From IMG/VR virus record IMGVR_UViG_3300035698_018280, positions 1 to 64,000 of that record: 64,000 nt of DNA; one strand, 5' to 3'. The DNA comes from a virus. Of this stretch, positions 1,889 to 61,824 are shown piece after piece (positions within the stretch are counted from its first letter, which is position 1; the number at the start of each line of letters is the position of its first letter). Below the pieces are notes generated by a model. It saw only the letters and a list, made by a program, of their open reading frames with translations. It was not told the origin of the DNA and ran no database searches. The translations under genes were made by a program, and so were the position numbers.

Positions 1889-1922
1889 AACATATTCTCC
1901 TCATTCTTACCAGGGCCTATAT

Positions 1923-1934
1923 ATTATACATCGG
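1923..1934 (-). promoter_or_regulatory. Putative promoter CCGATGTATAAT
   Basis: Perfect TATAAT directly preceded by CCGATG, 35 nt upstream of the ATG at 1888. Confidence 0.5.
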
Positions 1935-1969
1935 AAATGTGAGAAGCCATCACTGAACGATACACGCAT

Positions 1970-2620
1970 TTAGACAAATTTTGCGAGGAAGAAAACTTCT
2001 TTTAAACCAGATTTTGCGCCTTCAGCCTCTTTTCTAGCTGAATGAAACCTATATCCACCCATTATTATCTCAAAATCTCCTAATGAAGAAAAATCATCCC
2101 AAATCTCAGGATACTTAGAAGCATCTTTGAAATAGTTAGTATTCTGAGCAAACTCTGGATGCATAATATTGAAAACGCTGGGATGATTGGCGTTTAGTTT
2201 ACCCTGCCTAGGTAAAGAGATAAAAACACCCCTCTTACAAGTTTTTCTAATCTGAGATAAAACCGATTCAGCATCCCACATATGTTCTAATGAATGAGAC
2301 GAGTAAGCAACGTCAAAGCATTCGTGCCCGAATTTATCTCCAAGATCATGAGCGTCAATTGGAAGAACGAGCTTATTATTATTGTCTGAAATATCAATAC
2401 CTATTGCATCATGGCCTCGGTTAATGAAGGACATAACTTCAGAATCATCGCGAGCGCCAATACAGACAATATTTAATACCAGGCCAAACGCATCTGAAAT
2501 ATTAAAAATATCTTCAATTCTCTTAGGTTCAAGAGATTTTGTTATACGAGATTTATTACCAGAATGCTCGCTCTTTTGCGCAGCAAGATAATCTTCATAC
2601 GGTACTTCAAGTCTCTTCAT
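1970..2620 (-). CDS. Class I SAM-dependent methyltransferase (Methyltransf_11-like)
   Basis: VCIGAR, AIGIDI and FDVAYSSHSLEH motifs. Start moved to the second Met (2620) to shorten the overlap with the upstream gene. Confidence 0.75.
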   Translation of the reverse strand: MKRLEVPYEDYLAAQKSEHSGNKSRITKSLEPKRIEDIFNISDAFGLVLNIVCIGARDDSEVMSFINRGHDAIGIDISDNNNKLVLPIDAHDLGDKFGHECFDVAYSSHSLEHMWDAESVLSQIRKTCKRGVFISLPRQGKLNANHPSVFNIMHPEFAQNTNYFKDASKYPEIWDDFSSLGDFEIIMGGYRFHSARKEAEGAKSGLKEVFFLAKFV

Positions 2621-2885
2621 TTTGCTTACGCCTAATTTCTCCAATACGATCATTGGAGTTCAGAACCTCTCGCAGCAAGGCTGGCTCGTACCCTAGATGG
2701 CTGGCGGCCTCTACTAGGGCAGAAACATCTTTTGGAAAGCAGTTATGACTTACAATTCCTGTTCCCTGTTCAATCCAAAACAAATCATCATTCATTGGAT
2801 TATCATCTTTACTTTCAAGATGAAGATTATACACTTTGTCGTTGAATCGTTCTTTTGATATGTTTGTTATTTTCACGGTATTCAT
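2607..2885 (-). CDS. Split intein C-half (48 aa) fused to the C-terminal extein of UDP-glucose dehydrogenase (44 aa)
   Basis: MNTVKITNISKERFNDKVYNL (block F-like), then GIVSHN|CFPKDVSAL, with penultimate His, terminal Asn and Cys+1. CFPKD is the Ugd catalytic motif. Own AGGAG RBS at 2893-2897 and an ATGA overlap with the endonuclease stop. Confidence 0.9.
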   Translation of the reverse strand: MNTVKITNISKERFNDKVYNLHLESKDDNPMNDDLFWIEQGTGIVSHNCFPKDVSALVEAASHLGYEPALLREVLNSNDRIGEIRRKQNEET

Positions 2886-4022
2886 ATGCTTACTCCTAAC
2901 TTGATAAGATCTTTTTTGAATAATACTCGAATTTCAATATTCGGATTATGTTGTTTTATAGCAGAGAATTTTGTTTCATCATAAAAATATTCAGCTTTTA
3001 CATCTGCGTAACATTTCCATTTATCTATCCAGAAATCAGGATAGTAGTTTTTGTTTATTCCATTTTTGATATAAGGTATCCGCCCTTTGTGGCATTTGAA
3101 ACTCAGGTTATTTGTGTCTAACCAATTTATAAATGCTAATTCCCATGTTCCTTGTACCTTGTATGTCTCTCCATTTGAATGCTTGTAATCATACCATTTA
3201 CACTGACCTACTCTAACTCCGTCGAACTTTCCATTTGCCCAAGCATCTGCCGTATTCTTGGCTATCCTTTTTCTAAGTTCAGGGTCGTTGCGCATTCTTT
3301 CTTTTCTGGTGTTAGACATTTTCTTTCTAACATCAAGACGTTTCATACCGTTCTTGTTGCCAGCATTTATCTTTCTTTGTTTCGAAGTCTTAGATATTTG
3401 CTTTGCTAACTCAGGGTTTTTCTGCCTCATGATCTTGAGAGATTCAGACATTTTATTTCTATATTCTGGTTGCTTGTTTCTTAAAGATTGCCAGCATCGT
3501 TTGCAGTAATCTTTATCGCAAAGAGGATTCTCTTTCATCTTTTCATGACTGCGCCTGAGTCTGGAGTAGATTACACCACAATCATCACAAGAAAATTCTA
3601 TTTTAGAGTAAGGTTTTATCTTCTCCATCATCGGAGACAGTTGCATGGTTTTCTCCTTCTGCCGCAAAGTGCTTACCCTTTTTAGTACAGAAAAATTCAT
3701 CTGACTCCTTTATCTCTTTAGCTTGAATTACCTGTATTTCTCCATTTCGCAAAACTGGTATAAAATGTTCAGGAGTACATTTGAACTCTCCAGCGTCAGT
3801 TTTAAACACATAAAGTTCACCGTTGTAGTCTCTACAGGTCACTTCTAATATTTTTTTATCATCTAAATTCATTTCGGAATTTACTGATTCAATTACAGGC
3901 GAAAAGTATATATTTTGAGATTTCAAATTTTCTTGTATTTCATACAGCTTATCAATACGATAATTCCCATAAGATGCGGGAATATCGCCTACCACGTTTA
4001 CTAGAGCATCCCCAGTAACACA
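2742..4022 (-). mobile_element. Split intein plus free-standing endonuclease cassette inserted in ugd (IntN 4022-3606, endonuclease gene, IntC 2885-2742)
   Basis: Removing 4022-2742 at the protein level gives PFGGK+CFPKD, matching GFGGVCLPKD of the intein-free paralog at 13143-13958. Confidence 0.85.
2882..3646 (-). CDS. Putative free-standing homing endonuclease: Cys-rich N-terminus, basic NUMOD-like region, C-terminal PD-(D/E)XK (TnsA-N-like) nuclease
   Basis: CDDC...CDKDYCKRC, then RKKMS/RNKMS basic repeats, then VQGTWELAF...YYPDFWI...YADVK. AGGAG RBS at 3653-3657 before the ATG at 3646. Confidence 0.75.
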   Translation of the reverse strand: MQLSPMMEKIKPYSKIEFSCDDCGVIYSRLRRSHEKMKENPLCDKDYCKRCWQSLRNKQPEYRNKMSESLKIMRQKNPELAKQISKTSKQRKINAGNKNGMKRLDVRKKMSNTRKERMRNDPELRKRIAKNTADAWANGKFDGVRVGQCKWYDYKHSNGETYKVQGTWELAFINWLDTNNLSFKCHKGRIPYIKNGINKNYYPDFWIDKWKCYADVKAEYFYDETKFSAIKQHNPNIEIRVLFKKDLIKLGVSI

Positions 4023-4754
4023 CTTGCCCCCAAACGGCTTTTCGCTCTCAGAAAAGACAGCCGTATGCATAGGATTAATGCGGGGATCAAGAAGCCACGC
4101 CTCTCTCAGCTTGTAATAATCAACACCTAGCTTCTTGCAAATCTGGTCAATTTCATAACAGAACGTAACCTTCATTGCATAAAAAGTGTTTTCTACATAC
4201 TTTGAAAGCTCAGCAGTCAAAGTATCGGTTTGATGGTATACCTTTGTCGGTCCAACTACCTTGATAAAGAATTCGACACATGCCTCGGTGTCAATGCCGT
4301 CTCCGCCGAATGCGAACCAAGGCGTTTCCTTGACATCGGTATGAAATTTGTATTCAGTCCAATACTTTGATTCGCCGCAATACTCAGGAGAAAATACAAT
4401 TCGTTTGCCAGTCTCCTCCTTGAGCTTATTAGTAGTCCCAGGCTCGACTGTGGACTTGATAAGGAATAATGGCGCATCAATGGATCGCAAAGCCTCTTCA
4501 ACCAATGACGTATCGCAGAAGCCCTTCTCGTCCTTCGGTGTTGGAAGAGATATAACAACTAGATCGCATCCGTTTGCTTCAGCATAATTGTTAGTTTGAA
4601 TTCTTGATAAACCTTCTGCATTAGTAATTTTGCTATCTGCTGATGAGCCAGAAAATTTAGTATCTACAATGACCAAATTATAATGATCTCCGAAGAACTC
4701 ATCCATTGCCTTCCCAACGTAACCGTGACCGATAATAGCTATTTTCTTACTCAT
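3603..4754 (-). CDS. ugd: UDP-glucose/GDP-mannose dehydrogenase N-extein (244 aa) fused to a split intein N-half (139 aa)
   Basis: IIGHGYVG Rossmann motif, LPTP, IKSTVEPGTT, FSPE, AELSKYVENTFYAMKV, DPRI, PFGGK. These are followed by CVTGDALV (intein block A) and FKCTPEHFIPV (block B TxxH), then a stop. Confidence 0.9.
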   Translation of the reverse strand: MSKKIAIIGHGYVGKAMDEFFGDHYNLVIVDTKFSGSSADSKITNAEGLSRIQTNNYAEANGCDLVVISLPTPKDEKGFCDTSLVEEALRSIDAPLFLIKSTVEPGTTNKLKEETGKRIVFSPEYCGESKYWTEYKFHTDVKETPWFAFGGDGIDTEACVEFFIKVVGPTKVYHQTDTLTAELSKYVENTFYAMKVTFCYEIDQICKKLGVDYYKLREAWLLDPRINPMHTAVFSESEKPFGGKCVTGDALVNVVGDIPASYGNYRIDKLYEIQENLKSQNIYFSPVIESVNSEMNLDDKKILEVTCRDYNGELYVFKTDAGEFKCTPEHFIPVLRNGEIQVIQAKEIKESDEFFCTKKGKHFAAEGENHATVSDDGEDKTLL

Positions 4755-4763
4755 TGTATTTTC

Positions 4764-5294
4764 CTAAATAAGTTCCATTATACCAAACTTGTATTTTTTC
4801 CTATTAGAAACATTTATTATTTTACCTGAGAACCATTTATTTTCTACGGCTTCATTGAACGCTTTCATGCATCCTTCGTAATGTAAATCATCTACTAAAA
4901 TTACGCCATTGCTAGACAGTATTCCCCTGTCTCTAATAAGCCTATATTCTTCTAATCTAAATTTGTAACTTTTCGATCCATCTTGAAATATCAATCCATA
5001 TGAATCTTTACACTCTTTTAGAAAATCTATTGTTGAAGCTGTTATGCATTGGTTATTTTCAGTCGGTTCAGCCTTGAGAAATTTATCAGATATATCTACA
5101 TGGGTGCTGCGTACCTGCATATTTTTACAGATTTCGCAAAACAAGCCTTTTCTATATCCTAGTTCTAAAAATGAATTTGTATCCACAAGGTAGCTATAGA
5201 CCAATCGGACATAACTGTTCTTCTCAAGTAGCGGATCTGCCTTAGTCGGAAAATCTCGTATTAGTTGTTCTATATTTTCAGGTATATTAACCAT
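4764..5294 (-). CDS. SAM-dependent methyltransferase (Methyltransf_24-like)
   Basis: FLELGYRKG, HVDIS, LIFQDG and GVILVDD motifs. Confidence 0.7.
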   Translation of the reverse strand: MVNIPENIEQLIRDFPTKADPLLEKNSYVRLVYSYLVDTNSFLELGYRKGLFCEICKNMQVRSTHVDISDKFLKAEPTENNQCITASTIDFLKECKDSYGLIFQDGSKSYKFRLEEYRLIRDRGILSSNGVILVDDLHYEGCMKAFNEAVENKWFSGKIINVSNRKKYKFGIMELI

Positions 5295-5895
5295 TCTTAG
5301 TAGCCTCTACATAAAGGGAGCATTCTTTATATCTATCAAAATCGCAGTTTCTAAATTCTTTAGAACACTTATTGTATGACATGATAGAGATCTTACTAAA
5401 TCCTGCTTTGCGAAGATAATGGGTCATTACTTCTTCGTTGAAAGCAACGACATGACCGCCTTCTAATCGTCTAGTTTTTGTTTCGTCATTTACGTTATAA
5501 CTAAAAAACCAAGATGATAAATAACTCAAAGGTATATTGGGTAGGAAAGACATTTTTGTAGGATTTCGTTTCGACTTGAGATACTTGAAATCTTTATTGA
5601 CATAAGCTTTTATAGCTATATCTATATCAGGAACAACTAGACGGACTCTCTTGCCAGGAGCAAGCGCTCTGTGAATCTCTTTGAAAACAAAAGGGATTGT
5701 CTCTGGAAAGATATGTTCCATAGTATGAGAAGAGTATATTGCATCAACAGAATTATCTTCAAAAGGTAAGGGCTCCTTCATAATGTTCATAACTATATCG
5801 CAACCTCCCCTAACATCAATTATGGTCCAATCATCAAAGTTCTTACCGTGATTTTTTCTTCCTTTTTGACCGCCAATGTTTATCTTTACTGCCAT
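5287..5895 (-). CDS. SAM-dependent methyltransferase (Methyltransf_11-like)
   Basis: INIGG, LPFEDNSVDAIYSSHTMEH and EIHRALAPG...VVPD motifs. Confidence 0.8.
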   Translation of the reverse strand: MAVKINIGGQKGRKNHGKNFDDWTIIDVRGGCDIVMNIMKEPLPFEDNSVDAIYSSHTMEHIFPETIPFVFKEIHRALAPGKRVRLVVPDIDIAIKAYVNKDFKYLKSKRNPTKMSFLPNIPLSYLSSWFFSYNVNDETKTRRLEGGHVVAFNEEVMTHYLRKAGFSKISIMSYNKCSKEFRNCDFDRYKECSLYVEATKNG

Positions 5896-6857
5896 TTTAT
5901 CATTCCTCTAATATTGTCCGCAGCAACCCTGAGAGACAAATTTTTCCTATAGTAGGAAAAAGGTTCAAACATGCTGCTATTATCGACCATCCGTCTTATT
6001 TTATTTACAAACTGATCAGCAGACGAAAATTCGCCTGTTTCTTGAGTTATATATTTTTCTTTCCAAAATGTAGTCTGATCGGATATCAGCAATGGGCAAT
6101 TGCACGCTATTGATTCAGGTATTACTCTTGGGCATGAATCAAATTTACCTTTACACCATACAATAGAAAACCTAGCCTGCGAATAATAATTGGGTAGCTT
6201 ATGCCTGGGCTTCCATCCTTTGAATTTTATATGCGGATATTTTACTCGCATCTTCTTATCTGATATTCCCACTTGAAGAAGCTTGAGGTCTTTAGGGAAA
6301 TTAGACAGAACAAAATCATGTCCTTTTATACCTTTTGCATGAGTATTTGCGCAAAAGATAGCATCATACGATCTCTCTCTATCTACAGGCTTGAAGATAT
6401 TATCTGCTGCTGGCTTAACAAATAACTCTACTCTATATTTTGGGTTACTTGCAGATACCACCTTATGCTGTTCAGGAGAATCTACTAATACAAGATCGTA
6501 ATCTTTGAATGAAGACTGAGGATTGAATCGTCTACCAGCACCATAATAAACTTTATACGCATTAGGAAACCGTTTTAAGACATGATCATATTGAGCAAAG
6601 CCGCCGCGACATATTATTACATCTGGCGTAAAATTGCTTTTGTATCTGGTGAAATCTGGAATCCATAACTCAGTAAAATTCGGTCTGTATTGAACTTTTC
6701 TTTTATCTCCCCAATACCAAATTTGACATTCGCCATCTCTTGCTATCTCCCCCGCCAACTGAGTCCATACGTCATCGCATGACTTTAGATCATTGAACAT
6801 AATCTGTTGCTTGGGGCGATCAGTCGGTACTTGTCCTCGAAGGAAAAGAAGCTTCAT
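5886..6857 (-). CDS. GT-B fold glycosyltransferase (GT4-like)
   Basis: IKGHDF, FKGWKP...LPNYYSQA and DSCPRVIPESIACNCPLL donor-binding segment. Confidence 0.75.
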   Translation of the reverse strand: MKLLFLRGQVPTDRPKQQIMFNDLKSCDDVWTQLAGEIARDGECQIWYWGDKRKVQYRPNFTELWIPDFTRYKSNFTPDVIICRGGFAQYDHVLKRFPNAYKVYYGAGRRFNPQSSFKDYDLVLVDSPEQHKVVSASNPKYRVELFVKPAADNIFKPVDRERSYDAIFCANTHAKGIKGHDFVLSNFPKDLKLLQVGISDKKMRVKYPHIKFKGWKPRHKLPNYYSQARFSIVWCKGKFDSCPRVIPESIACNCPLLISDQTTFWKEKYITQETGEFSSADQFVNKIRRMVDNSSMFEPFSYYRKNLSLRVAADNIRGMIKWQ

Positions 6858-10679: not shown

Positions 10680-11339
10680 CTATCTCTTAGCTATAACAAC
10701 CAGTTTATCATCGCAAAACAGTTCGCAGGATTTTATATTGTCAGAAAACCATTTGTTCTCTTCTTCGCTGAAAATTCTGGAATGGAAATTACCTGAATCT
10801 ATAAATCTCTTTATGACTCCAAGCGTTTTCTTCATTACTATCTTATGCTTTCTTGTATTTTTCTTTTTCCTTCTATCATAGTCAAGATCTTCTATAAAAT
10901 ACAAACCAGAAGGTTTGAGATAAGGGAATAAAACAGACAAAGATATTTGTTGATCTTCTGCAGAATGAGAGCCATCATCGATAATGACATCAAAGCTATG
11001 ATCGGCAGCAACGACAGCTTTCATGATATCTTCTTTTTCAGATTGATCGCCCCGTATAACGCAACAATCAAGTTCTCTAAGTTGAGAGATTACATTTCTG
11101 GCATCCCGTTTACTGTTGTAACCATGCCCCTTGAAGATATCCATACATATTATTTTGCTGTTGTTGTCGAAGTATTCTTTCCACATGGATATAGATGAAC
11201 CTTCTGCTACCCCTATCTCAAAGAAAGTAATAGGCTCATTCTCAAAACGCTTCAGGTATCTCTCGTAAGTTGGAAGATAGCCATGATCTTGATCGCTTTT
11301 ATCTGTACCATGTTTTCTGGCAAGATCATTCAACGTCAT
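10680..11339 (-). CDS. Sugar O-methyltransferase-like protein (MycE/TylE C-domain-like)
   Basis: GTDK...HGY, FEIGV..GSS..MWKEYF, GDQS, DVIIDDGSH and GLYFIED motifs. Start set at 11339 (GGAG RBS). Confidence 0.8.
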   Translation of the reverse strand: MTLNDLARKHGTDKSDQDHGYLPTYERYLKRFENEPITFFEIGVAEGSSISMWKEYFDNNSKIICMDIFKGHGYNSKRDARNVISQLRELDCCVIRGDQSEKEDIMKAVVAADHSFDVIIDDGSHSAEDQQISLSVLFPYLKPSGLYFIEDLDYDRRKKKNTRKHKIVMKKTLGVIKRFIDSGNFHSRIFSEEENKWFSDNIKSCELFCDDKLVVIAKR

Positions 11340-12351
11340 ATTTCTTCTCCATCCATGCGACAAGCTCGCTAATAGTTGTCTCTAAATCTACTTCGCATTC
11401 AAATCCAAGGATTTCTTTTGCCTTGCTGACATCAGGAGAACGAATCTGTACATCATGTTTGAACGGCTCAAGGTTCTCGAACTCTAAAACGGCGTCTCCA
11501 TGAATCTCTTTCCATACTAACTCTGCAAGTTTTTCTACAGTAAGCGATCTGTCTGATGATATATTAAAATCATTGTCAATAGCATCATCTGACTCCATAG
11601 CAAGTATTATCCCTCTTGAAATATCCTTACCGTCAGTATAGTGTCTAACCTGTTCTCCGCTTCCGTATATTGGTAGCTTCTTATTAGGTCCAAGCACGAT
11701 CGCCTTGTAGATGAGGTCAGGCAGAACATGACTCAATAACATGTTGGCAGTACCATCCTTCGTGTCCATGTCAATAAGCTCGTCATCCTCTCCTAGTCCC
11801 ACACAGTTGAATGGGCGTATAATGGTATACGGCAATCCGTACTGCTCTTTGGCTCCATAGCAAAAGTATTCGCAAGCAAGCTTTTGGAACCCATATGTAC
11901 TCAAAGGAGAAGGACATATACGAACCTCTTCTTCAGGAGTTGGGTATGTTGATGTGGATTCATAGACCATGCTACTTGAGATAACAACGATTCTCTTTAG
12001 ATTATGGTTCTGGAACTCTTTTATGCCATAATCAAACGTAGACGCCATAATCCTCTCATTAGTAGCAAGCAGGTCGTAAGCATATTTGTGAAAATATGAT
12101 ATTCCTCCAATCATCGCAGCAAATGCAATAATGAGATCAGGATGCCATTCTTTGAGATGACTCATAGAGTCCATATCTAAAACATCTCCTTCAATAAAAT
12201 GGAAATCAGGATGGTCATCATGTCCTCTTTCCACTTTGCCGTATTTAGAATAGTTATCGATTCCAACAACGGCATAGCCTCTAGCTAACAGATCAGCGCA
12301 AACGTAAGATCCTATAAATCCCTGGCTACCTGTAACGAGTACGTTAATCAT
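11326..12351 (-). CDS. NAD-dependent nucleotide-sugar epimerase/dehydratase/decarboxylase
   Basis: VTGSQGFIGS, ISSSMVY, YGFQK (YxxxK), IRPFNCVG and GSGEQVR motifs. Confidence 0.9.
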   Translation of the reverse strand: MINVLVTGSQGFIGSYVCADLLARGYAVVGIDNYSKYGKVERGHDDHPDFHFIEGDVLDMDSMSHLKEWHPDLIIAFAAMIGGISYFHKYAYDLLATNERIMASTFDYGIKEFQNHNLKRIVVISSSMVYESTSTYPTPEEEVRICPSPLSTYGFQKLACEYFCYGAKEQYGLPYTIIRPFNCVGLGEDDELIDMDTKDGTANMLLSHVLPDLIYKAIVLGPNKKLPIYGSGEQVRHYTDGKDISRGIILAMESDDAIDNDFNISSDRSLTVEKLAELVWKEIHGDAVLEFENLEPFKHDVQIRSPDVSKAKEILGFECEVDLETTISELVAWMEKKYDVE

Positions 12352-47756: not shown

Positions 47757-49799
47757 TTATTCATCGCCAAACATATCGTCTGACTCCAATCCTTTTCGAC
47801 GAGATTTCCTTCTGTCTTCCCGTAGTTCACCAAACTCTTTTACAACATCTTCAGACTTACGTTTTTTCGTTCTACCAGTCTTCATATCTTTCTCTCTAAA
47901 GAAGCCAGCAATCGCCAGGCATTCTGCACTTTTTGCATCAACAAACTTTGGATCAGTATTGAAAGCAAAATCTCTCATATCCGAATACGGCTGCTTGGCC
48001 TCAATCTCTGTAGCCGCTCGGTGGCTCATACCCTTACAACGAAGCGAAGGTCTGATCTGAGACTTATGAACACCGTTTGACGGATCTTTGCGGACAACAA
48101 TTTCGTAGTCATAACTACACTTGTTGATACTACGAGGAAGAACGTCCATATTCATCTTGCCGCAATCTTTTTCAAACTGCACAATCTTTTCATACTTATC
48201 AGCTTTTTTACTTCTCAATAAAACATTCATGTATGATGTCATAAACTCTTCAGGATAATGAGTTTTCAGATAAGCAGTTGTATACGATAAATAAGCATAA
48301 CAAGCGCTATGAGATTTATTAAATCCATAATCAGCAAAGGGAGTAATAAACTTATCCCAATACTGTTGCGCAACTTCTTCAGGAACATTGTTGACTTTAC
48401 AGCCGTCAATAAACTGAATTTGATACTTATTCATGAGTTCCGGTATTTTCTTACCGACTGCTTTGATCATAGCATAACCATCAGTAATAGAAAAACCAGC
48501 AAGAGAATTACAGACTTGCATCAACTGTTCTTGATAACAAAGAACTCCGTATGTAGGTTCTAGATATTTTCTAACATAAGGCTCAATAGACTCATGAAAA
48601 TATCCAACAGGTTCTTCGCCTTTCTTACGAGAAGAATATAATGGAATTGATTTCATAGGCCCTGGACGATACAAAGCTACTCCTACAATGACATCTTCAA
48701 AACGATTGACTCTAAGTTGTCGCATCGTTTGTTGCATACCTGGATTTTCGCATTGGAAAACGCCATTGAGTTTGCCGCTTCGATATAGATTTAGTGTATC
48801 CTTATCGTCAAGAGGCATATTCTCTACATCAATTGTAATTCCATAATTTTCTTTAATAAGTTCTACTGTCCGACGAATAACTGCCAATGTTGATATGGCA
48901 AGAATATCAAATTTGATAAGACCCATAAACTCAAGGTCTTCATATGCATATTGCGTAGCAAGTTCATAATGAGTACCCTTACCTTCTTCGTCTGCAACTT
49001 TCTTTCGGCTTAGCCTCAGAGGAGCAATAGACTGAAGAGGTACGCTAGAAATAACAATTCCGGCAGCATGAACGCTAAAGTTAGATAGTAATCCCTGAAT
49101 ATTGGGCGAATGCTCAAGAAGCTCAGGATATTTATCCACATATCTTTTAAAGTCATCGCAATATTTTGCCCCATCTGCAACAGTCCTGATAACGACATCA
49201 TTACCCTCCTCATCGGTGGCCCTGATGTTTGCCCCGACCTGTTTTGGAAGAGATTTTGCTATCTCGTCCCCTCTATCCTGCGTTTCCTTGCGCCAACGTT
49301 CCCTGTTCTCATTCCTAACAGTCTTGCTCTCGTGAAGAGCCATAGTAGGTGAAAATACTTTATCAGGATCCAGGGCTCTAAACCCTTGGCGAATATAAGA
49401 CTTAAGCTTCAACGACTGATAAGTACCGATATTACCAACATGGTCTCTACCATACTTGTCAATAATGTAAGTATAAATTTCATCGCGAAACTCATCATCA
49501 AAATCAGAATCAATATCAGGAAAGCCCTTACGAGCAAAACAACGACGAATAGGAAGAAATTCTTCGTCCTCTGGTCTTTTCTCAGTTATACCCAATAGAT
49601 AAGCTGTATGAGAATTGATCTTATTAGTCTTACCGATAAGACTCTTCTCTTTAGCGCTCTTCCACATATTATAAAACTTAAGGAGAATAGGCTCTCCATC
49701 AAGATTATCGGTTTGAGCCATAAAGTCCAATTCTTCTCGAACTTTATCAGTGGCTTTACTTCCAATAGTTTCAAGAATCTCTTGTTTGATCTTGTTCAT
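47757..49799 (-). CDS. dnaE: DNA polymerase III alpha, C-terminal part (catalytic palm, fingers, HhH; no PHP, no OB)
   Basis: GFPDIDSDF, KYG, HAAGIVIS, GLIKFDIL, GVFQCE, ALYRPGPM, YGVLCYQEQ, YGFNKSHS and YLKTHYP motifs; ends in DDMFGDE. Confidence 0.93.
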   Translation of the reverse strand: MNKIKQEILETIGSKATDKVREELDFMAQTDNLDGEPILLKFYNMWKSAKEKSLIGKTNKINSHTAYLLGITEKRPEDEEFLPIRRCFARKGFPDIDSDFDDEFRDEIYTYIIDKYGRDHVGNIGTYQSLKLKSYIRQGFRALDPDKVFSPTMALHESKTVRNENRERWRKETQDRGDEIAKSLPKQVGANIRATDEEGNDVVIRTVADGAKYCDDFKRYVDKYPELLEHSPNIQGLLSNFSVHAAGIVISSVPLQSIAPLRLSRKKVADEEGKGTHYELATQYAYEDLEFMGLIKFDILAISTLAVIRRTVELIKENYGITIDVENMPLDDKDTLNLYRSGKLNGVFQCENPGMQQTMRQLRVNRFEDVIVGVALYRPGPMKSIPLYSSRKKGEEPVGYFHESIEPYVRKYLEPTYGVLCYQEQLMQVCNSLAGFSITDGYAMIKAVGKKIPELMNKYQIQFIDGCKVNNVPEEVAQQYWDKFITPFADYGFNKSHSACYAYLSYTTAYLKTHYPEEFMTSYMNVLLRSKKADKYEKIVQFEKDCGKMNMDVLPRSINKCSYDYEIVVRKDPSNGVHKSQIRPSLRCKGMSHRAATEIEAKQPYSDMRDFAFNTDPKFVDAKSAECLAIAGFFREKDMKTGRTKKRKSEDVVKEFGELREDRRKSRRKGLESDDMFGDE

Positions 49800-50137
49800 T
49801 ATATACCTGCGCTAAAATGGGCTGTTACGCCCAGGCTAGAATATTTCTTCACTATTTTTAGGTTCAGCCTATTTTGCAATAGCTCTCCTTGTCGTTCTAT
49901 CTCTTTCATTTCGGCCCAATACCCTTCGCTATTATCATCATCCACCAACATCGTTCCAGGTTTAGCCTGCCAATAGCAATATACACTAATTTCTGTATGA
50001 TATGTCCTACTTGAAAAATGCAAGCCCCACGAGTTGATATCTATTTCAAAACGAGGTTCATCAACTTCCTGGCTAACTTCATCCGATGTTTGACGAACCA
50101 TTTTTAAGATATTTTGAATTACGCTAGAAGACAACAT
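49799..50137 (-). CDS. Hypothetical protein between the two dnaE halves
   Basis: 112-aa ORF starting 3 nt after the dnaE-N stop, with a TAATG overlap to dnaE-C. Confidence 0.6.
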   Translation of the reverse strand: MLSSSVIQNILKMVRQTSDEVSQEVDEPRFEIDINSWGLHFSSRTYHTEISVYCYWQAKPGTMLVDDDNSEGYWAEMKEIERQGELLQNRLNLKIVKKYSSLGVTAHFSAGI

Positions 50138-50140
50138 GAG

Positions 50141-51535
50141 TTAATACCTATCTACTCCGCCCATATCGTCTTCAAACTCTCGATCCAGAGCGGCGGTTTC
50201 AATAAACAACTCTTCTGCAGATTTGGCTTCATCTAAACCAAAATCGCTCTCTTGCAGGAATCTCTTGTCATCGAAGCCCAAGAATCTTTCCCAAAGAAGT
50301 CCATACTCCAATGGATCTGGCCCATATGCAATACCAAGGCAACGTAAAAGCACGCTGCCGTATCCTGAACCCCGGCCGCATCCGGTCAAGATGTTTCGCC
50401 TTCGAGCTTCCATCATGTAGTCTCGAACAATAAGTAGATACGTTGCAAAGTCATATTTATTATTATCCCATGCAACTTTGATATCATCCATTTCGAGTTT
50501 CAATCGAGCTATATGTTCAGGACTCTGCGCCCATCCTAATTTCTGAAGACCGTCGTTTGCCAACTGCCCCATGTAATCATGAGGAGATTTAAAACTTTTA
50601 GGTATATCGAATCTAGGCAGTCTCATACCGCTTGTCATATTTGTAAGTATATCGGTAGTGTCAACCTTGTCGGCAACAAGCATGGTATTCGTCAGAAGCT
50701 CAGGATGCGTTCCAAATGTCTTAGACATTTCAGCAGCCGACTTTAGATAGAACTCACTGTAAGGAAACTTGATGCGGCTAGGATCGCTGAAGCAACGAGA
50801 AGTTGACATTGCCATTAGAAGCTCATGAGATTTGCCCTGGCATTTTTCGCAATAGTGACAATCATTAGTAGCATGAACGCATACATCCATGTCTTTACCA
50901 AGCTTGAGAATATCCGGGATAATCATGCCTTCAGCATCTATACCATGATACATAGCCTCAAGATGAAAATCTTTATCGAATATGTCTTTAAAAAGGGCAA
51001 CGGCCTTCTTGGCCTGATCGTAACGGTCATGCAACAAGTTAGCATTGATAACGCTACTTAGACAAGCAGAAGTGCAAATAAGCCCTTCGCTATATTTACC
51101 AAGAAGATCAAAATCTATACGAGGATCAAAGAAATAACCTTCGGTCCAGCTATGCTCAGAAAGACGACAAAGGTTCTGGTATCCTGTCCAGTTTTTAGCA
51201 ATCAAAACAATATGTCTATTGCCCTTTCGCTTGTCTGGTTGTTCTTGTACTGAATGAGCGTGCCTGTCTTTGGACAAATAAAACTCGCAGCCTACGATGG
51301 GCTTGCATGTTGGAATCTCGTTTCCATGCTCATCTTTAGCAGGCTTTAGGCATTCCTGCATAAACTTGATAGCACCAGCCATGTTTCCATGATCAGTCAT
51401 GGCAAGGGCCTTGAATCCTTTTTTGCGAGCAGCAAGAGGAAACTGTCCTATCTTATTTAGCCCATCAAAAGATGAGTATTCAGTATGGTTATGAAGGTGA
51501 CAAAAATCGGCGTTAGTGATACGAAGTTTTCCCAT
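50141..51535 (-). CDS. dnaE: DNA polymerase III alpha, N-terminal part (PHP domain plus start of palm)
   Basis: HLHNHTEYSSFDG, AMTDHGN, KPIVGCEFY, ATNDCHY, YLKS, LPRF, GCGRGSGYGS and DPLEYGLLWERFL motifs. Confidence 0.93.
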   Translation of the reverse strand: MGKLRITNADFCHLHNHTEYSSFDGLNKIGQFPLAARKKGFKALAMTDHGNMAGAIKFMQECLKPAKDEHGNEIPTCKPIVGCEFYLSKDRHAHSVQEQPDKRKGNRHIVLIAKNWTGYQNLCRLSEHSWTEGYFFDPRIDFDLLGKYSEGLICTSACLSSVINANLLHDRYDQAKKAVALFKDIFDKDFHLEAMYHGIDAEGMIIPDILKLGKDMDVCVHATNDCHYCEKCQGKSHELLMAMSTSRCFSDPSRIKFPYSEFYLKSAAEMSKTFGTHPELLTNTMLVADKVDTTDILTNMTSGMRLPRFDIPKSFKSPHDYMGQLANDGLQKLGWAQSPEHIARLKLEMDDIKVAWDNNKYDFATYLLIVRDYMMEARRRNILTGCGRGSGYGSVLLRCLGIAYGPDPLEYGLLWERFLGFDDKRFLQESDFGLDEAKSAEELFIETAALDREFEDDMGGVDRY

Positions 51536-58719: not shown

Positions 58720-61700
58720 CTAGTCAATATCAATGTGATCTGCTATTGATGAGCCGCTATGAGCATCATTCTTTCCGATAAGCGGAACGTCAGGCTGCCC
58801 ATCGCCGTCTACATCAGTATTAGCAAAAACGCAGTTCTGTTTTGCCCATGCCCTCATCTCAGAAAGTTCTGTTTTACGAATTTCAGATAAGGGTTTCATA
58901 TTGCTTACAGAATCAAGTATATCTTTTGTTCTTAGCTTTCGTTTTTTAGATTTGAAAGCAATAAACATTCCTGCATCTATAGCTTTTTCAATTTCTGCGC
59001 CGCTATAACCGTTAGTCTTCTCAGAAAGTTTTTCAATATCAAACTTTTTAGGATCTAATTTCTGTTTCTTCAATAGAATATCAAAGATTTGCTTGCGTCC
59101 TTCAAGACCAGGTAAATCAATCCAAAACACTTCATCAAATCTTCCTGCTCGCATAAATTCGGGCGGAATATCTAACACGTTATTGGCAGTAGTAACTACA
59201 AAAACAGGTTTTGTTTTTTCTTGCAGCCATGTCAGGAATGTAGAGATTACTCGCTTTGTCGTACCAGAATCCCCCGAGCCTGCGCCAACGCCGCCCGACA
59301 ACCCTTTCTCAATCTCATCGCACCAAAGAACGCAGTTGTGACAAAGAATTTCATTAGCAACAAAGTTATGGTTTCCTTCGCATGCCAGATCGTAAGCCCA
59401 CTTAGTTCCGACCTCTTCAATCTTTGTAACTTTCATACCAACAAGATCGCAACATATAAGATCAACAATAGAATCTTTAGTTACCTGGTTATTTTGAGTT
59501 CCATTTTTGTTACTAAGCGTCTCGGCAATAGCCCATGCTTTTATAAACGGTACTATAGAACCTTTTTCATAGTGAGTCATTGACTGAGAAGCAATAGGGA
59601 AATCATTTTTAGTAAGACCGTAGAAGATTCTCTCTTTCAAGAGAGAATTTCCAAGCTTATACCCAATGCTGCGATTTTCTTTACCAAATTTATTGCTGAC
59701 TATATAGGCAAGATCAGTCGAAAGACTATCTACTTTTAGGTCCATAGCAATAGCCAATGCCTCGATATCGTCGGCATTCTCGATAGATATCTCCATGCCC
59801 CTAGCAGGCTCCTTATAAGATATTACGCCAAAAATATGAATCGCTTTTCTAATCCGCATTCTATATACGGGATCAGTTGATTGTAATTTAAATATAATCT
59901 TCGATTTGTTATCATTCTCAATAATTTCGCCAGAAGTATCAAACATACCGCTCAAAAAATTGCGAACGTACTCGTCTTCTTGCGCAAATAATTCATCTCT
60001 AGCATGATTGAGAATATCAGCTACAATTTTATTACTTACCTTGATATTATAACCGCATGATGTTTTTTCAAGGGCTGGTTCAACCCCGAACATGTCAGCC
60101 ATTGCATTGACAATAAGATACGACTTATCCAGTGTGCCCGCCTTGAAATGAACCTCTCCTTTAGAGATATCAATCCAGCCACATCCGTGAATAGCACCAA
60201 CAAGATAATAGACTAAACAGCGGTTGAATCCGCTCAACAAAGTTACATCATGATATTCGCCTTCGAATTTACCAGCAATTTTATTACAACCGTTTTTATC
60301 TCCTGGTTTAAAAGTGTCATAAGGAATAGAGATAGCTTCTTTCCAGTTTGTCTCTCGCCCTCGACGCATAAAATACTTAGGCGTCATAACTAAATCGCCC
60401 TTTTCAATATCTTTAGCTTCAACCCATTTGAGATCGCCATCTCGATTAACCATAATCTTATGATCTTTAGTAACTTCAATGGAAGTCGTTGCTGTTTTAA
60501 TTCGGATCATCGCTTTTTTCTTGGCGTGTCTAATAACTGTTCGAACCCGAGTCGGTTCCATCTTCTTTTGTTCTTCATTGAATGCATAAATAAATAGCTC
60601 TTCTTTACTAAACAGCCTCTTATCATCTGCAAGATCAGAAATTCTGTGTTGTACGCCATCTATATCATAGATAATTGAATCACCGGATACGCATGGAGCA
60701 ATAGTCTCAGCCAACTTGATAGCAGCACGGGCTGTTTTTTCAGACTCGCCAACCAGCGAATCAAACATACGGCCAAAATCGAGACGAAGCAGAGGCATAC
60801 CGTAATCCTTAGCAATTGCTTTTGCCGTTAGACTCTTTCCTCCGCCAGGCACACCAAGCAGCATGACTCCTTTAGGCATTTTCAAACCGTATTCCTGCGC
60901 CTCATGAGAAAAGGCCAGTTTGCGATCATGGAGCCAACCTATCATATTGTCCAAACCGCCGACATCCGCAAGAGAAACATTTGGATCTACATATTCAAGG
61001 ATGTCTGTCTTGCGAATTATCGATCTTTTTTCCTTCATCAATATTTCTAAATCAAACGGATTATGACCAAGCTGGTTAGCCATAACCATTGATTTGAAAA
61101 ATGCGGCTTGCGCTTCTGTGAGAGTTAGTCCCTTTACCGAATTGACCAGGTCTTCTCGATTTTCTTCTACATATTTTATTACATCAGGACAATGAGGAAA
61201 GGCGTTTTTATTGTCCCCAATAAGCGAAACAGCTTCATCAAGAATTTCATTAACCTCGTATTCATTCGGATATGGAAAATCAAGTGCAGCCATATCTTTG
61301 TCGAGAGACGCTGTGCTTGTGAAAGAAGGCCCTGTTAGTATGACGCTAGCAGCCTTAGACTCAGACGAAAGGTACTTCAAACGCCGCTGGATGGCAGGTG
61401 CAGGCGGTTTCAAATAACGATAGAAATCCAACAGGACATACAAATTGCCGTTGCTCGGTTTAGCATTAGTCGAAGAAGATTCTGCCTTGTTCTTATTTTT
61501 TCTCTTGTTGATTTGAAATTTTTCAATTTGATCTATAACAAAATTGAGTGTAGTTTCAGGATTAGTGAAATCAATTTTATTGTTGCCGTCTACGTTGACA
61601 GGCTGACGACCATCGAGATGCCGTAAACCTTTATAACAATCCCAAACATATCCAACGTAATTGCGAGCTTCACAAAGATTTTCAACGTGAGCCAGGAATC

Positions 61701-61824
61701 TCTTCTCTTCATTTGTAGAAACAAAGATCAGAGGTTGGCGACTTTTGATAAGTGCCAGTAAACCATTATTGAACTCAGGTGTTGCGCATAATGAAAATAA
61801 CTTCTCTGCTTCGATATTTGACAC
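58720..61824 (-). CDS. Ycf46-type AAA+ ATPase (581 aa after splicing) containing an intein
   Basis: EEKR, DVGGL, PKGVMLLGVPGGGKSL, LLRLD.G...SLVGESE, AP|intein|CVLWCDEIEK, TWLQE and PPEFMRAGRFDE motifs. Confidence 0.9.
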   Translation of the reverse strand: MSNIEAEKLFSLCATPEFNNGLLALIKSRQPLIFVSTNEEKRFLAHVENLCEARNYVGYVWDCYKGLRHLDGRQPVNVDGNNKIDFTNPETTLNFVIDQIEKFQINKRKNKNKAESSSTNAKPSNGNLYVLLDFYRYLKPPAPAIQRRLKYLSSESKAASVILTGPSFTSTASLDKDMAALDFPYPNEYEVNEILDEAVSLIGDNKNAFPHCPDVIKYVEENREDLVNSVKGLTLTEAQAAFFKSMVMANQLGHNPFDLEILMKEKRSIIRKTDILEYVDPNVSLADVGGLDNMIGWLHDRKLAFSHEAQEYGLKMPKGVMLLGVPGGGKSLTAKAIAKDYGMPLLRLDFGRMFDSLVGESEKTARAAIKLAETIAPCVSGDSIIYDIDGVQHRISDLADDKRLFSKEELFIYAFNEEQKKMEPTRVRTVIRHAKKKAMIRIKTATTSIEVTKDHKIMVNRDGDLKWVEAKDIEKGDLVMTPKYFMRRGRETNWKEAISIPYDTFKPGDKNGCNKIAGKFEGEYHDVTLLSGFNRCLVYYLVGAIHGCGWIDISKGEVHFKAGTLDKSYLIVNAMADMFGVEPALEKTSCGYNIKVSNKIVADILNHARDELFAQEDEYVRNFLSGMFDTSGEIIENDNKSKIIFKLQSTDPVYRMRIRKAIHIFGVISYKEPARGMEISIENADDIEALAIAMDLKVDSLSTDLAYIVSNKFGKENRSIGYKLGNSLLKERIFYGLTKNDFPIASQSMTHYEKGSIVPFIKAWAIAETLSNKNGTQNNQVTKDSIVDLICCDLVGMKVTKIEEVGTKWAYDLACEGNHNFVANEILCHNCVLWCDEIEKGLSGGVGAGSGDSGTTKRVISTFLTWLQEKTKPVFVVTTANNVLDIPPEFMRAGRFDEVFWIDLPGLEGRKQIFDILLKKQKLDPKKFDIEKLSEKTNGYSGAEIEKAIDAGMFIAFKSKKRKLRTKDILDSVSNMKPLSEIRKTELSEMRAWAKQNCVFANTDVDGDGQPDVPLIGKNDAHSGSSIADHIDID
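59335..60693 (-). mobile_element. Cis-splicing intein (453 aa) with a degenerate LAGLIDADG domain
   Basis: CVSGDS (block A), EVTKDHKI (block B) and AYDL...HNFVANEILCHN|C (blocks F/G). Endonuclease-like blocks YLVGAIHGCG and FLSGMFDTSG. Confidence 0.92.

Follow-up and report, generated by a model that had tools for sequence, protein, structure and literature searches.

A fractured gene for a short UGDH-family dehydrogenase in a phage genome, with a very probable naturally split intein at the catalytic cysteine and a putative homing endonuclease gene between its halves

In cyanobacterial DnaE (Ssp, Npu), a naturally split intein with cysteines at its first position and at the first position after it (Cys1 and Cys+1) is present and the enzyme is rebuilt by trans-splicing; the halves lie far apart in the genome, no endonuclease stands between them and the +1 cysteine is not catalytic. 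In the UDP-glucose dehydrogenase (UGDH) family, the cysteine of GGxCFPKD is the catalytic nucleophile. The fractured-gene layout, with an endonuclease gene between the two parts of a split-intein gene, was described by Dassa et al. 2009 (PMC2677866) in 26 metagenomic loci for eight DNA-synthesis or repair enzymes; the endonucleases were GIY-YIG or Vsr-like and the split inteins included gp41-1, gp41-8, NrdJ-1, NrdA-2 and IMPDH-1. M. jannaschii (Mja UDP GD in the intein registry), halobacteria and some few bacteria are known to have a contiguous (cis) intein allele, 'udp', in their UDP-glucose dehydrogenases (Soucy et al. 2014, PMC4071816). Here, a fractured gene for a short UGDH-family dehydrogenase is described from the first 64 kb (64,000 nucleotides, called the window below) of the 163,887 bp IMG/VR virus record IMGVR_UViG_3300035698_018280 (CheckV completeness 33%). 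As judged from its sequence, a naturally split intein very probably joins both halves as proteins at the catalytic cysteine, and a free-standing endonuclease gene lies between the N-terminal intein half (IntN) and the C-terminal one (IntC). The window's intein would thus resemble that of DnaE in Cys1, Cys+1 and the rebuilding of an enzyme by trans-splicing, and it is unlike the latter in the adjacency of its halves, the endonuclease gene and the catalytic +1 cysteine.

Three open reading frames (ORFs) were read from the sequence on the minus strand in the order N-extein-IntN, endonuclease and IntC-C-extein, and their parts are as follows (positions are those of the window).

3603-4754, minus strand: N-precursor gene, 383 aa plus stop (TAA at 3605-3603); dehydrogenase N-extein fused to IntN; matches to PF03721 and PF00984 and a weak Intein_splicing match.
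4023-4754, minus strand: N-extein, residues 1-244; Rossmann NAD-binding domain and first two thirds of the central domain; ends PFGGK, with Lys244 at 4025-4023.
3606-4022, minus strand: IntN, 139 aa; Cys1 is Cys245 (TGT, 4022-4020); block B is TPEH (Thr327, His330); the tail after ...DEFF is not conserved.
2882-3646, minus strand: free-standing endonuclease gene, 254 aa; zinc ribbon, NUMOD3-like repeats and predicted PD-(D/E)xK nuclease at residues ~147-254.
3653-3657, minus strand: AGGAG ribosome-binding site of the endonuclease gene, 6 nt ahead of the ATG at 3646, read from the sequence.
2607-2885, minus strand: C-precursor gene, 92 aa plus stop; IntC fused to the dehydrogenase C-extein; PF00984 positions 59-93.
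2742-2885, minus strand: IntC, 48 aa; ends GIVSHN (blocks F and G), with Asn48 at 2744-2742.
2610-2741, minus strand: C-extein, 44 aa; Cys+1 is Cys49 (TGC, 2741-2739) and opens CFPKD, the UGDH-family catalytic cysteine motif.
2893-2897, minus strand: AGGAG ribosome-binding site of the IntC gene, ahead of the ATG at 2885, read from the sequence.

The three genes within 2607-4754, the stop of the first at 3603, the PFGGK, CVTGDALV, GIVSHN and CFPKD borders and both AGGAG sites had been given in an earlier note on this DNA, and all were found in the sequence as it described them. From Cys245 on, IntN reads CVTGDALV... and includes ...KCTPEH.... The TGA of the endonuclease gene and the ATG of the IntC gene overlap as ATGA, and the first 44 nt of the endonuclease gene, its ATG included, coincide with the non-conserved tail of the IntN ORF. 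Both breaks had been read as translational couplings; this fits the endonuclease/IntC break with its ATGA, while the IntN/endonuclease break is a 44-nt overlap with a ribosome-binding site of its own. A longer endonuclease of 272 aa from the in-frame ATG at 3700 was rejected, since the homologues align from 3646, which has the ribosome-binding site. In a promoter and terminator scan of 1900-5400, promoter-like sites were fewer than in shuffled sequences and no convincing terminator was found between the three genes, which are probably co-transcribed.

Homologues of the dehydrogenase were searched for in 5.8 billion proteins (E <= 0.001) and 1316 were obtained, of which the best 120 are mostly 265-300 aa long and in nearly all cases contain only PF03721 and PF00984. 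P0006, P0009 and P0010, which have no intein and are 282-292 aa long, share 72, 68 and 69% identity with the N-extein, respectively, and run uninterrupted (...PFGGKCFPKDVSA...) through PFGGKCFPKD to an end resembling the C-extein of the window. The joined exteins are collinear with these three proteins, give a predicted mature protein of 288 aa and rebuild the catalytic motif GGxCxPKD as GGK-CFPKD. The alignment of P0009 with solved UGDHs covers residues ~1-317 of their chains and puts FGGKCFPKD on the FGGSCFPKD of 3vtf and 4a7p, in agreement with the earlier proposal that Cys+1 is the catalytic cysteine. The PF00984 central domain is divided between the precursors: the N-precursor has positions 2-68 of the profile, and the C-precursor has positions 59-93 (Pfam E-values 4e-15 and 9e-6, respectively, and 5e-10 for PF03721 in the N-precursor).

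On this domain evidence, the joined product is a short two-domain dehydrogenase of the UGDH family, a predicted enzyme and not a shown Ugd. TIGR03026 gave 107.8 bits with the window N-precursor and 153.5 bits with P0009 versus a cut-off of 189.8, and the scores of the Ugd equivalog NCBIfam models were far under their cut-offs. After the catalytic cysteine only the 44-residue C-extein is left before a methyltransferase gene begins, and the intein-less orthologues are likewise without PF03720 (the UDP-binding C domain). The name Ugd, under which the gene had been introduced, was not retained because PF03720 is absent, TIGR03026 is below its cut-off and the next gene encodes a methyltransferase; the part of that name which stands is the membership of the UGDH/GDP-mannose dehydrogenase family (PF03721, PF00984 and GGxCxPKD).

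By its conserved blocks, the sequence interrupting the dehydrogenase is an intein. Block A begins with Cys245 directly after GGK, and a cysteine is found there in 29 of 29 related N-halves; in block B (TxxH, here T327-P-E-H330), Thr327 and His330, together with Pro333, are likewise kept in all 29; and block G reads ...VSHN with a cysteine following in the window, the same HN/C (the slash marks the splice junction) being present in 24/24 C-halves. With phmmer, IntN was matched to the Mja KlbA intein 2jmz (E 4e-5) and to PI-PkoII, 2cw7 (E 5e-4). Four relatives of 456-487 aa (P0004, P0027, P0044 and P0064) carry a contiguous mini-intein at the same codon, in which a short linker replaces the window's stop codon, endonuclease gene and start codon; because the linker of these contiguous relatives is located there, the split was assigned to the canonical loop between blocks B and F.

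The complex of N-precursor residues 236-383 with C-precursor residues 1-60 was predicted with a score of 0.73, versus 0.02 for the best control; among solved complexes 58 of 80 score that high, and among mismatched pairs 2 of 110. At least 90% of the contacts were common to three prediction runs, with partner pLDDT (the per-residue model confidence) of at least 72. IntN and IntC are predicted by these models to pair, a pass which may reflect likeness to solved split-intein complexes and is no proof of binding. Predicted binding of the halves would also be in keeping with a dimerisation module only, by which the enzyme pieces are held together without ligation, and phage genes-in-pieces working without splicing do exist, such as split NrdA (PMC3322345 ref. 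46). However, Cys1, TxxH, the terminal HN and Cys+1 serve chemistry, not binding, and all of them are invariant, and in an unligated assembly the catalytic cysteine would abut the bulky HINT domain at the active site; such a non-covalent role is considered to be very improbable.

Recurrence of the fracture was determined in viral and metagenome contigs. Scans of viral contigs with single proteins gave one locus each, so that alignment-based scans were needed, and 37 loci were obtained with the IntC alignment and then read by tblastn and ORF inspection. The same three-ORF fracture was found in most of the 37, and after removal of duplicates there were 24 distinct loci with IntN, endonuclease and IntC, their endonucleases being homologous to that of the window. 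In all, the fracture is repeated at about 30 distinct viral loci. A separate IntC-extein gene (90-94 aa) was present in five other assemblies, and in three of these the longest contig is as long as one bearing an N-half with IntN (P0001, P0002 and P0003). In 11 loci apart from that of the window, the endonuclease gene ends and the IntC gene begins within an ATGA. Identity with the window's exteins falls from 74% to about 25%, and the nearest relative has a protein identity of 57-75%. The sequence of a second host clade is GDGG(A/G)C/...HN/CHPRD, and its protein has PF03721 and PF00984 and a weak partial PF03720 match in a longer C-extein. Since the splicing residues are invariant despite this extein divergence, selection for splicing, and not decay, is suggested.

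Decay has to be weighed all the same, because an endonuclease insertion into a cis mini-intein could have destroyed the dehydrogenase gene and left the ORFs as decaying, non-splicing remnants. Decay or loss of the endonuclease in L037, L009, L018 and L012 would fit such a history: it is truncated in L009 and L018 and gone in L012, where a 300-nt gap is left. In the closest relative (L037:3548-4380, 74% N-extein identity), the endonuclease is frameshifted and both intein halves are intact. But endonuclease decay with the intein halves kept intact is the pattern expected if splicing is needed; furthermore, both halves in the window have full-length open frames, starts and ribosome-binding sites, and the splicing residues and the catalytic motif of the exteins are invariant across about 30 loci whose exteins are at 25-33% identity. 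A dead gene is therefore regarded as very unlikely.

Some loci depart from the three-ORF layout. In four near-identical viral contigs from different samples (L026-L029:3762-5525), IntN and IntC are in the same frame with a stop and 28 nt between them, without an endonuclease, and the C-extein is ~145 aa with a weak PF03720 match; either the endonuclease has been lost from a split intein here, or a cis intein is interrupted by an in-frame stop. In L039 (2-1226), IntN and the endonuclease occupy one open frame (2-1003) and only IntC is separate (966-1226), which may be an intermediate between the free-standing and the intein-embedded endonuclease. In L030 and L034, cis inteins with LAGLIDADG are found at the same site. 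In L025, another endonuclease-like match of lower strength (2569-2997) lies immediately upstream of the fractured gene, and in L044 (1018-4067) two dehydrogenase paralogues lie in tandem, of which the second alone is fractured.

The frame breaks are genuine and do not stem from misassembly. Two further public runs, filed with different study codes, gave contigs that are identical to the window over 3514-3780 and 3520-3670, and these contigs span the IntN stop and the endonuclease start. A contiguous cis intein to which errors of assembly or sequencing have added the stop and the frame changes might be imagined for a metagenome assembly, the more so as the junction at 2870-2900 has no independent cover; yet a 765-nt endonuclease ORF lies in another frame and has a ribosome-binding site, a start and a stop to itself, the contigs of the two other runs are identical over 3514-3780, dozens of independent contigs repeat the three-ORF layout, and the C-half is called as a separate gene in the five other assemblies mentioned above. 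An artefact is thus held to be extremely unlikely.

Several points weigh against the trans-splicing interpretation. In the intein-profile scan which the earlier note had proposed, the window stays just under the curated cut-offs of TIGR01445 (23.8 bits vs 24.5) and TIGR01443 (14.0 bits vs 15.6), and it is also under that of Pfam PF14890 (23.6 bits vs 35.8); on the other side, position 1 of TIGR01445 aligns exactly at residue 245, and the relatives P0027 and P0044 pass the cut-offs of both TIGR01445 and TIGR01443. No match to PF03720 was found in the whole 164-kb record. The stretch 2500-3116, which includes the second junction, is not covered by independent contigs, and this junction is backed solely by the recurrence of the layout in other loci. 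The endonuclease is decayed or lost in L037, L009, L018, L012 and L026-29, and stable maintenance therefore does not extend to the whole element. Lastly, protein splicing, endonuclease activity and the cleavage site are all things which we infer. With these points taken in, it is still judged highly probable from the sequence comparisons that this is a genuine fractured gene, in which trans-splicing rebuilds the dehydrogenase and a homing-type endonuclease gene is placed between the halves. The overall trans-splicing proposal of the earlier note is supported by the intein-less orthologues, the cis relatives, the recurrence, the invariant residues, the intein matches and the predicted complex.

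The endonuclease was compared by using HMMER with 1.84 billion representatives, by which 710 relatives were obtained at E <= 0.001, with 51 at the stricter E <= 1e-30. Thirty-six members were aligned, and G166, E169 (QGTWE), P203-D204 (YYPDF), K217 (VDVK) and K226 are invariant among them; the E...PD...DxK pattern kept throughout this alignment is the canonical PD-(D/E)xK set. Cysteines 20, 23 and 48 are nearly invariant, the N-terminal consensus being CxxC...CxxC (zinc ribbon), and the helical repeats in the middle are NUMOD3-like. Pfam matches among the 36 members were DUF7487 (28/36), Phage_endo_I (15/36), NUMOD3 (3/36) and TnsA-like N (3/36); Vsr families were found neither in these Pfam matches nor in the family-profile search of the PDB. 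The window endonuclease alone gave 22.4 bits with PF05367 (cut-off 29.1), and the family profile matched T7 endonuclease I with an E-value of 2e-11, YYPDF...VDVKG being aligned on YTPDF...VETKG.

For the fold comparison, an AlphaFold (AF2) model of the endonuclease with pLDDT 92.6 was used. With Foldseek, no match of the whole model was found in the PDB at E <= 0.001. With VIA-align, residues 147-253 of the model matched TnsA 1t0f best (Z 8.6, root mean square deviation 2.8, 103 residues aligned), followed by I-Bth0305I (Z 6.5), VRR-NUC (6.4) and Vsr (5.9), with I-Ssp6803I at 3.7. On the profile and fold matches, the endonuclease is a T7-endonuclease-I-like PD-(D/E)xK nuclease (T7 endonuclease I/TnsA branch) with probable DNA-binding modules, and it probably belongs to neither the GIY-YIG nor the Vsr-like type of the published fractured genes. 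Its nuclease domain is like those of T7 endonuclease I (gp3; 1m0d, 1fzr, 2pfj) and TnsA (1t0f) both by profile and by fold. Unlike the T7 enzyme, which is small, junction-resolving and without extra domains, the window's endonuclease adds a zinc ribbon and NUMOD3-like helices, and it sits where a homing endonuclease would, in or beside one target gene. I-Bth0305I (3r3p, Vsr-like) and I-Ssp6803I (2ost) are also mobile-element nucleases and have the restriction-endonuclease-like fold in common with it, whereas these two reside in group I introns and neither of them was found in the PDB profile search or matched at the sequence level. In contrast to the Asp/His/Asp active site of the Vsr type, the residues conserved here fit the canonical PD-(D/E)xK set, and the likeness to Vsr is at the level of the fold only.

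Eighty viral loci with a relative of this endonuclease were read. In 42 of them it is within a split intein of a dehydrogenase gene, in 15 it directly follows, and often overlaps, a short dehydrogenase gene without any intein part detected, and the other 23 are other contexts or contig edges. From this position, within or directly after a dehydrogenase gene at 57/80 loci, we infer a homing role. At nine loci (L075-L078, L080, L081, L093, L096 and L102, ~2000-3750 in each), a dehydrogenase of 300-330 aa is followed at once by the endonuclease; these nine dehydrogenases read G(F/Y)(G/S/A)xxCFxKD unbroken, and their C-termini read ...EVRPE(K/R)DWE.L.GRAV.... Some of the nine are on very long viral contigs, L075 being from a contig of 527 kb.

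In the proposed mechanism, the 139-aa IntN and the 48-aa IntC would associate as a HINT domain, Cys1 would carry out the N-S acyl shift, the thioester would be attacked by Cys+1, Asn48 would cyclise and the exteins would be joined as ...PFGGK-CFPKD.... As the splicing nucleophile is at the same time the catalytic thiol, neither precursor would be active before splicing. The endonuclease most likely cuts dehydrogenase alleles without the element, and during repair the whole of IntN, endonuclease gene and IntC would be copied into the cleaved allele. As to its origin, the endonuclease was probably first free-standing beside an intact gene and then entered the loop of a mini-intein, by which the latter was split, and the variants described above may be stages of one cycle (neighbour of the target, entry into the mini-intein, split and decay). 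This order of origin agrees with the model of Dassa et al. 2009 (PMC2677866).

The loci of Dassa et al. 2009 and the present one are alike in gene order and strand, in their presence mainly in phage and metagenome DNA, in the split within the loop between blocks B and F, in the existence of endonuclease-less variants (their gp41-7 and here L026-29) and in NUMOD3-type motifs ahead of the nuclease. They differ in that the host gene here is a member of the sugar-nucleotide dehydrogenase family in a glycan-synthesis cluster, the endonuclease is a T7 endonuclease I homologue with E...PD...DxK, the window's IntN is long (139 aa), and the genes overlap where in theirs 27-51 nt of non-coding DNA precede the endonuclease gene.

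The 'udp' intein and that of the window are both inserted directly before the catalytic cysteine of GGxCFPKD and end in HN. The 'udp' intein, however, is contiguous, is ~470 aa long and interrupts three-domain UGDH genes, whereas the one in the window is split, has no internal endonuclease domain and belongs to a two-domain phage enzyme. By a scan for the HN/CFPKD pattern, at least 120 cellular contigs were found, including those of Halorubrum, Halovenus and Halonotius, mostly with single ORFs of ~900 aa, in which the GGxC before the intein is ~260 residues in and ~175 residues are left after the junction. When cellular genomes were scanned with the IntC profile (two patterns), no relative was obtained, which speaks for this IntC type only. 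In five contigs of bacterial metagenome-assembled genomes (L126, L161, L171, L184 and L191), the open frame before HN/CFPKD has only 58-186 residues and the contig continues; these are either a split or frameshifted cellular 'udp' intein or assembly errors.

Nearly all genes of the window are on the minus strand, and the G+C content is ~38%. The record has PHROG matches to a Pol III alpha-type DNA polymerase, a DnaB-like helicase, a UvsX-like recombinase, a Cas4-type exonuclease and a nucleotide-sugar epimerase, and was therefore taken as a large phage. DNA near-identical to the window was found only in runs labelled salt lake metagenome, and no match of the fractured region was obtained by blastn against the phage record collection. 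Flanked by three S-adenosylmethionine (SAM) methyltransferase genes and a GT1 glycosyltransferase gene, the fractured gene lies within a phage glycan-modification cluster. The genes at 1970-2653, 4764-6857 and 11326-12351 (minus strand) encode methyltransferases, the GT1 glycosyltransferase and, farther off, a nucleotide-sugar epimerase.

Two further genes of the window were recorded. At 58720-61824 (minus strand), a gene for a 1034-aa AAA+ ATPase has a contiguous intein at residues 389-830 (Pfam Intein_splicing, E 9e-21), placed between the AAA and AAA-lid domains; with this cis intein and the split one of the dehydrogenase gene, one phage would have both intein forms. The Pol III alpha (DnaE-type) polymerase is in two ORFs (47757-51535, minus strand), of which that at 50141-51535 has the PHP domain and the start of the NTPase domain and that at 47757-49799 the remaining NTPase domain, the finger and HhH; they are separated by an ORF of 112 aa (49799-50137), and no intein motifs are visible at this break.

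Literature on inteins with nucleotide-sugar or UDP-glucose dehydrogenases and on new split inteins was searched, with incomplete coverage, so that absence is not proof, and apart from unrelated mentions only the cis 'udp' allele was met with; we could not find a published description of the split form, of a fractured gene in this class of host enzyme or of the endonuclease family in such a gene. The insertion site is not new, because cis inteins at the same cysteine are known and common in cellular UGDH genes. The statement of the earlier note that a split intein in a nucleotide-sugar enzyme is unusual thus applies to the split form, and not to the position, where cis inteins have long been known.

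That splicing gates the supply of a glycan precursor, as also put forward earlier, is speculation. It is rather unlikely that splicing at the catalytic cysteine is a real post-translational switch and not merely a tolerated selfish element and, as a separate matter, that the DUF7487/T7-endonuclease-I-like proteins are a family of homing endonucleases that was not recognised before and is specialised on genes of sugar-nucleotide dehydrogenases. As Cys1 and Cys+1 are both thiols, association or splicing could respond to redox state or to infection timing, and if this were true, the switch would set when the phage glycan pathway gets its oxidised sugar nucleotide.

Interest in the locus will be mainly with intein and homing-endonuclease specialists. 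In annotation, loci of this kind are easily mistaken for truncated 'Ugd' pseudogenes. As candidate new orthogonal split inteins, roughly 30 diverged IntN/IntC pairs with Cys1 and Cys+1 are available, and the endonuclease, with its T7 endonuclease I-like domain, NUMOD3-like helices and zinc ribbon, is a candidate for a new homing endonuclease family. At one site a natural series is available, with the endonuclease beside an intact gene, in a split intein, fused to IntN, decaying and lost, and the same codon is also occupied by cis mini-inteins and LAGLIDADG inteins; by this series of related loci the 2009 model of endonuclease gain and intein splitting becomes directly testable. With this gene, fractured genes and split inteins would be extended past DNA replication, repair and nucleotide supply into sugar-nucleotide metabolism, and to an enzyme whose splice junction would be the catalytic nucleophile itself.

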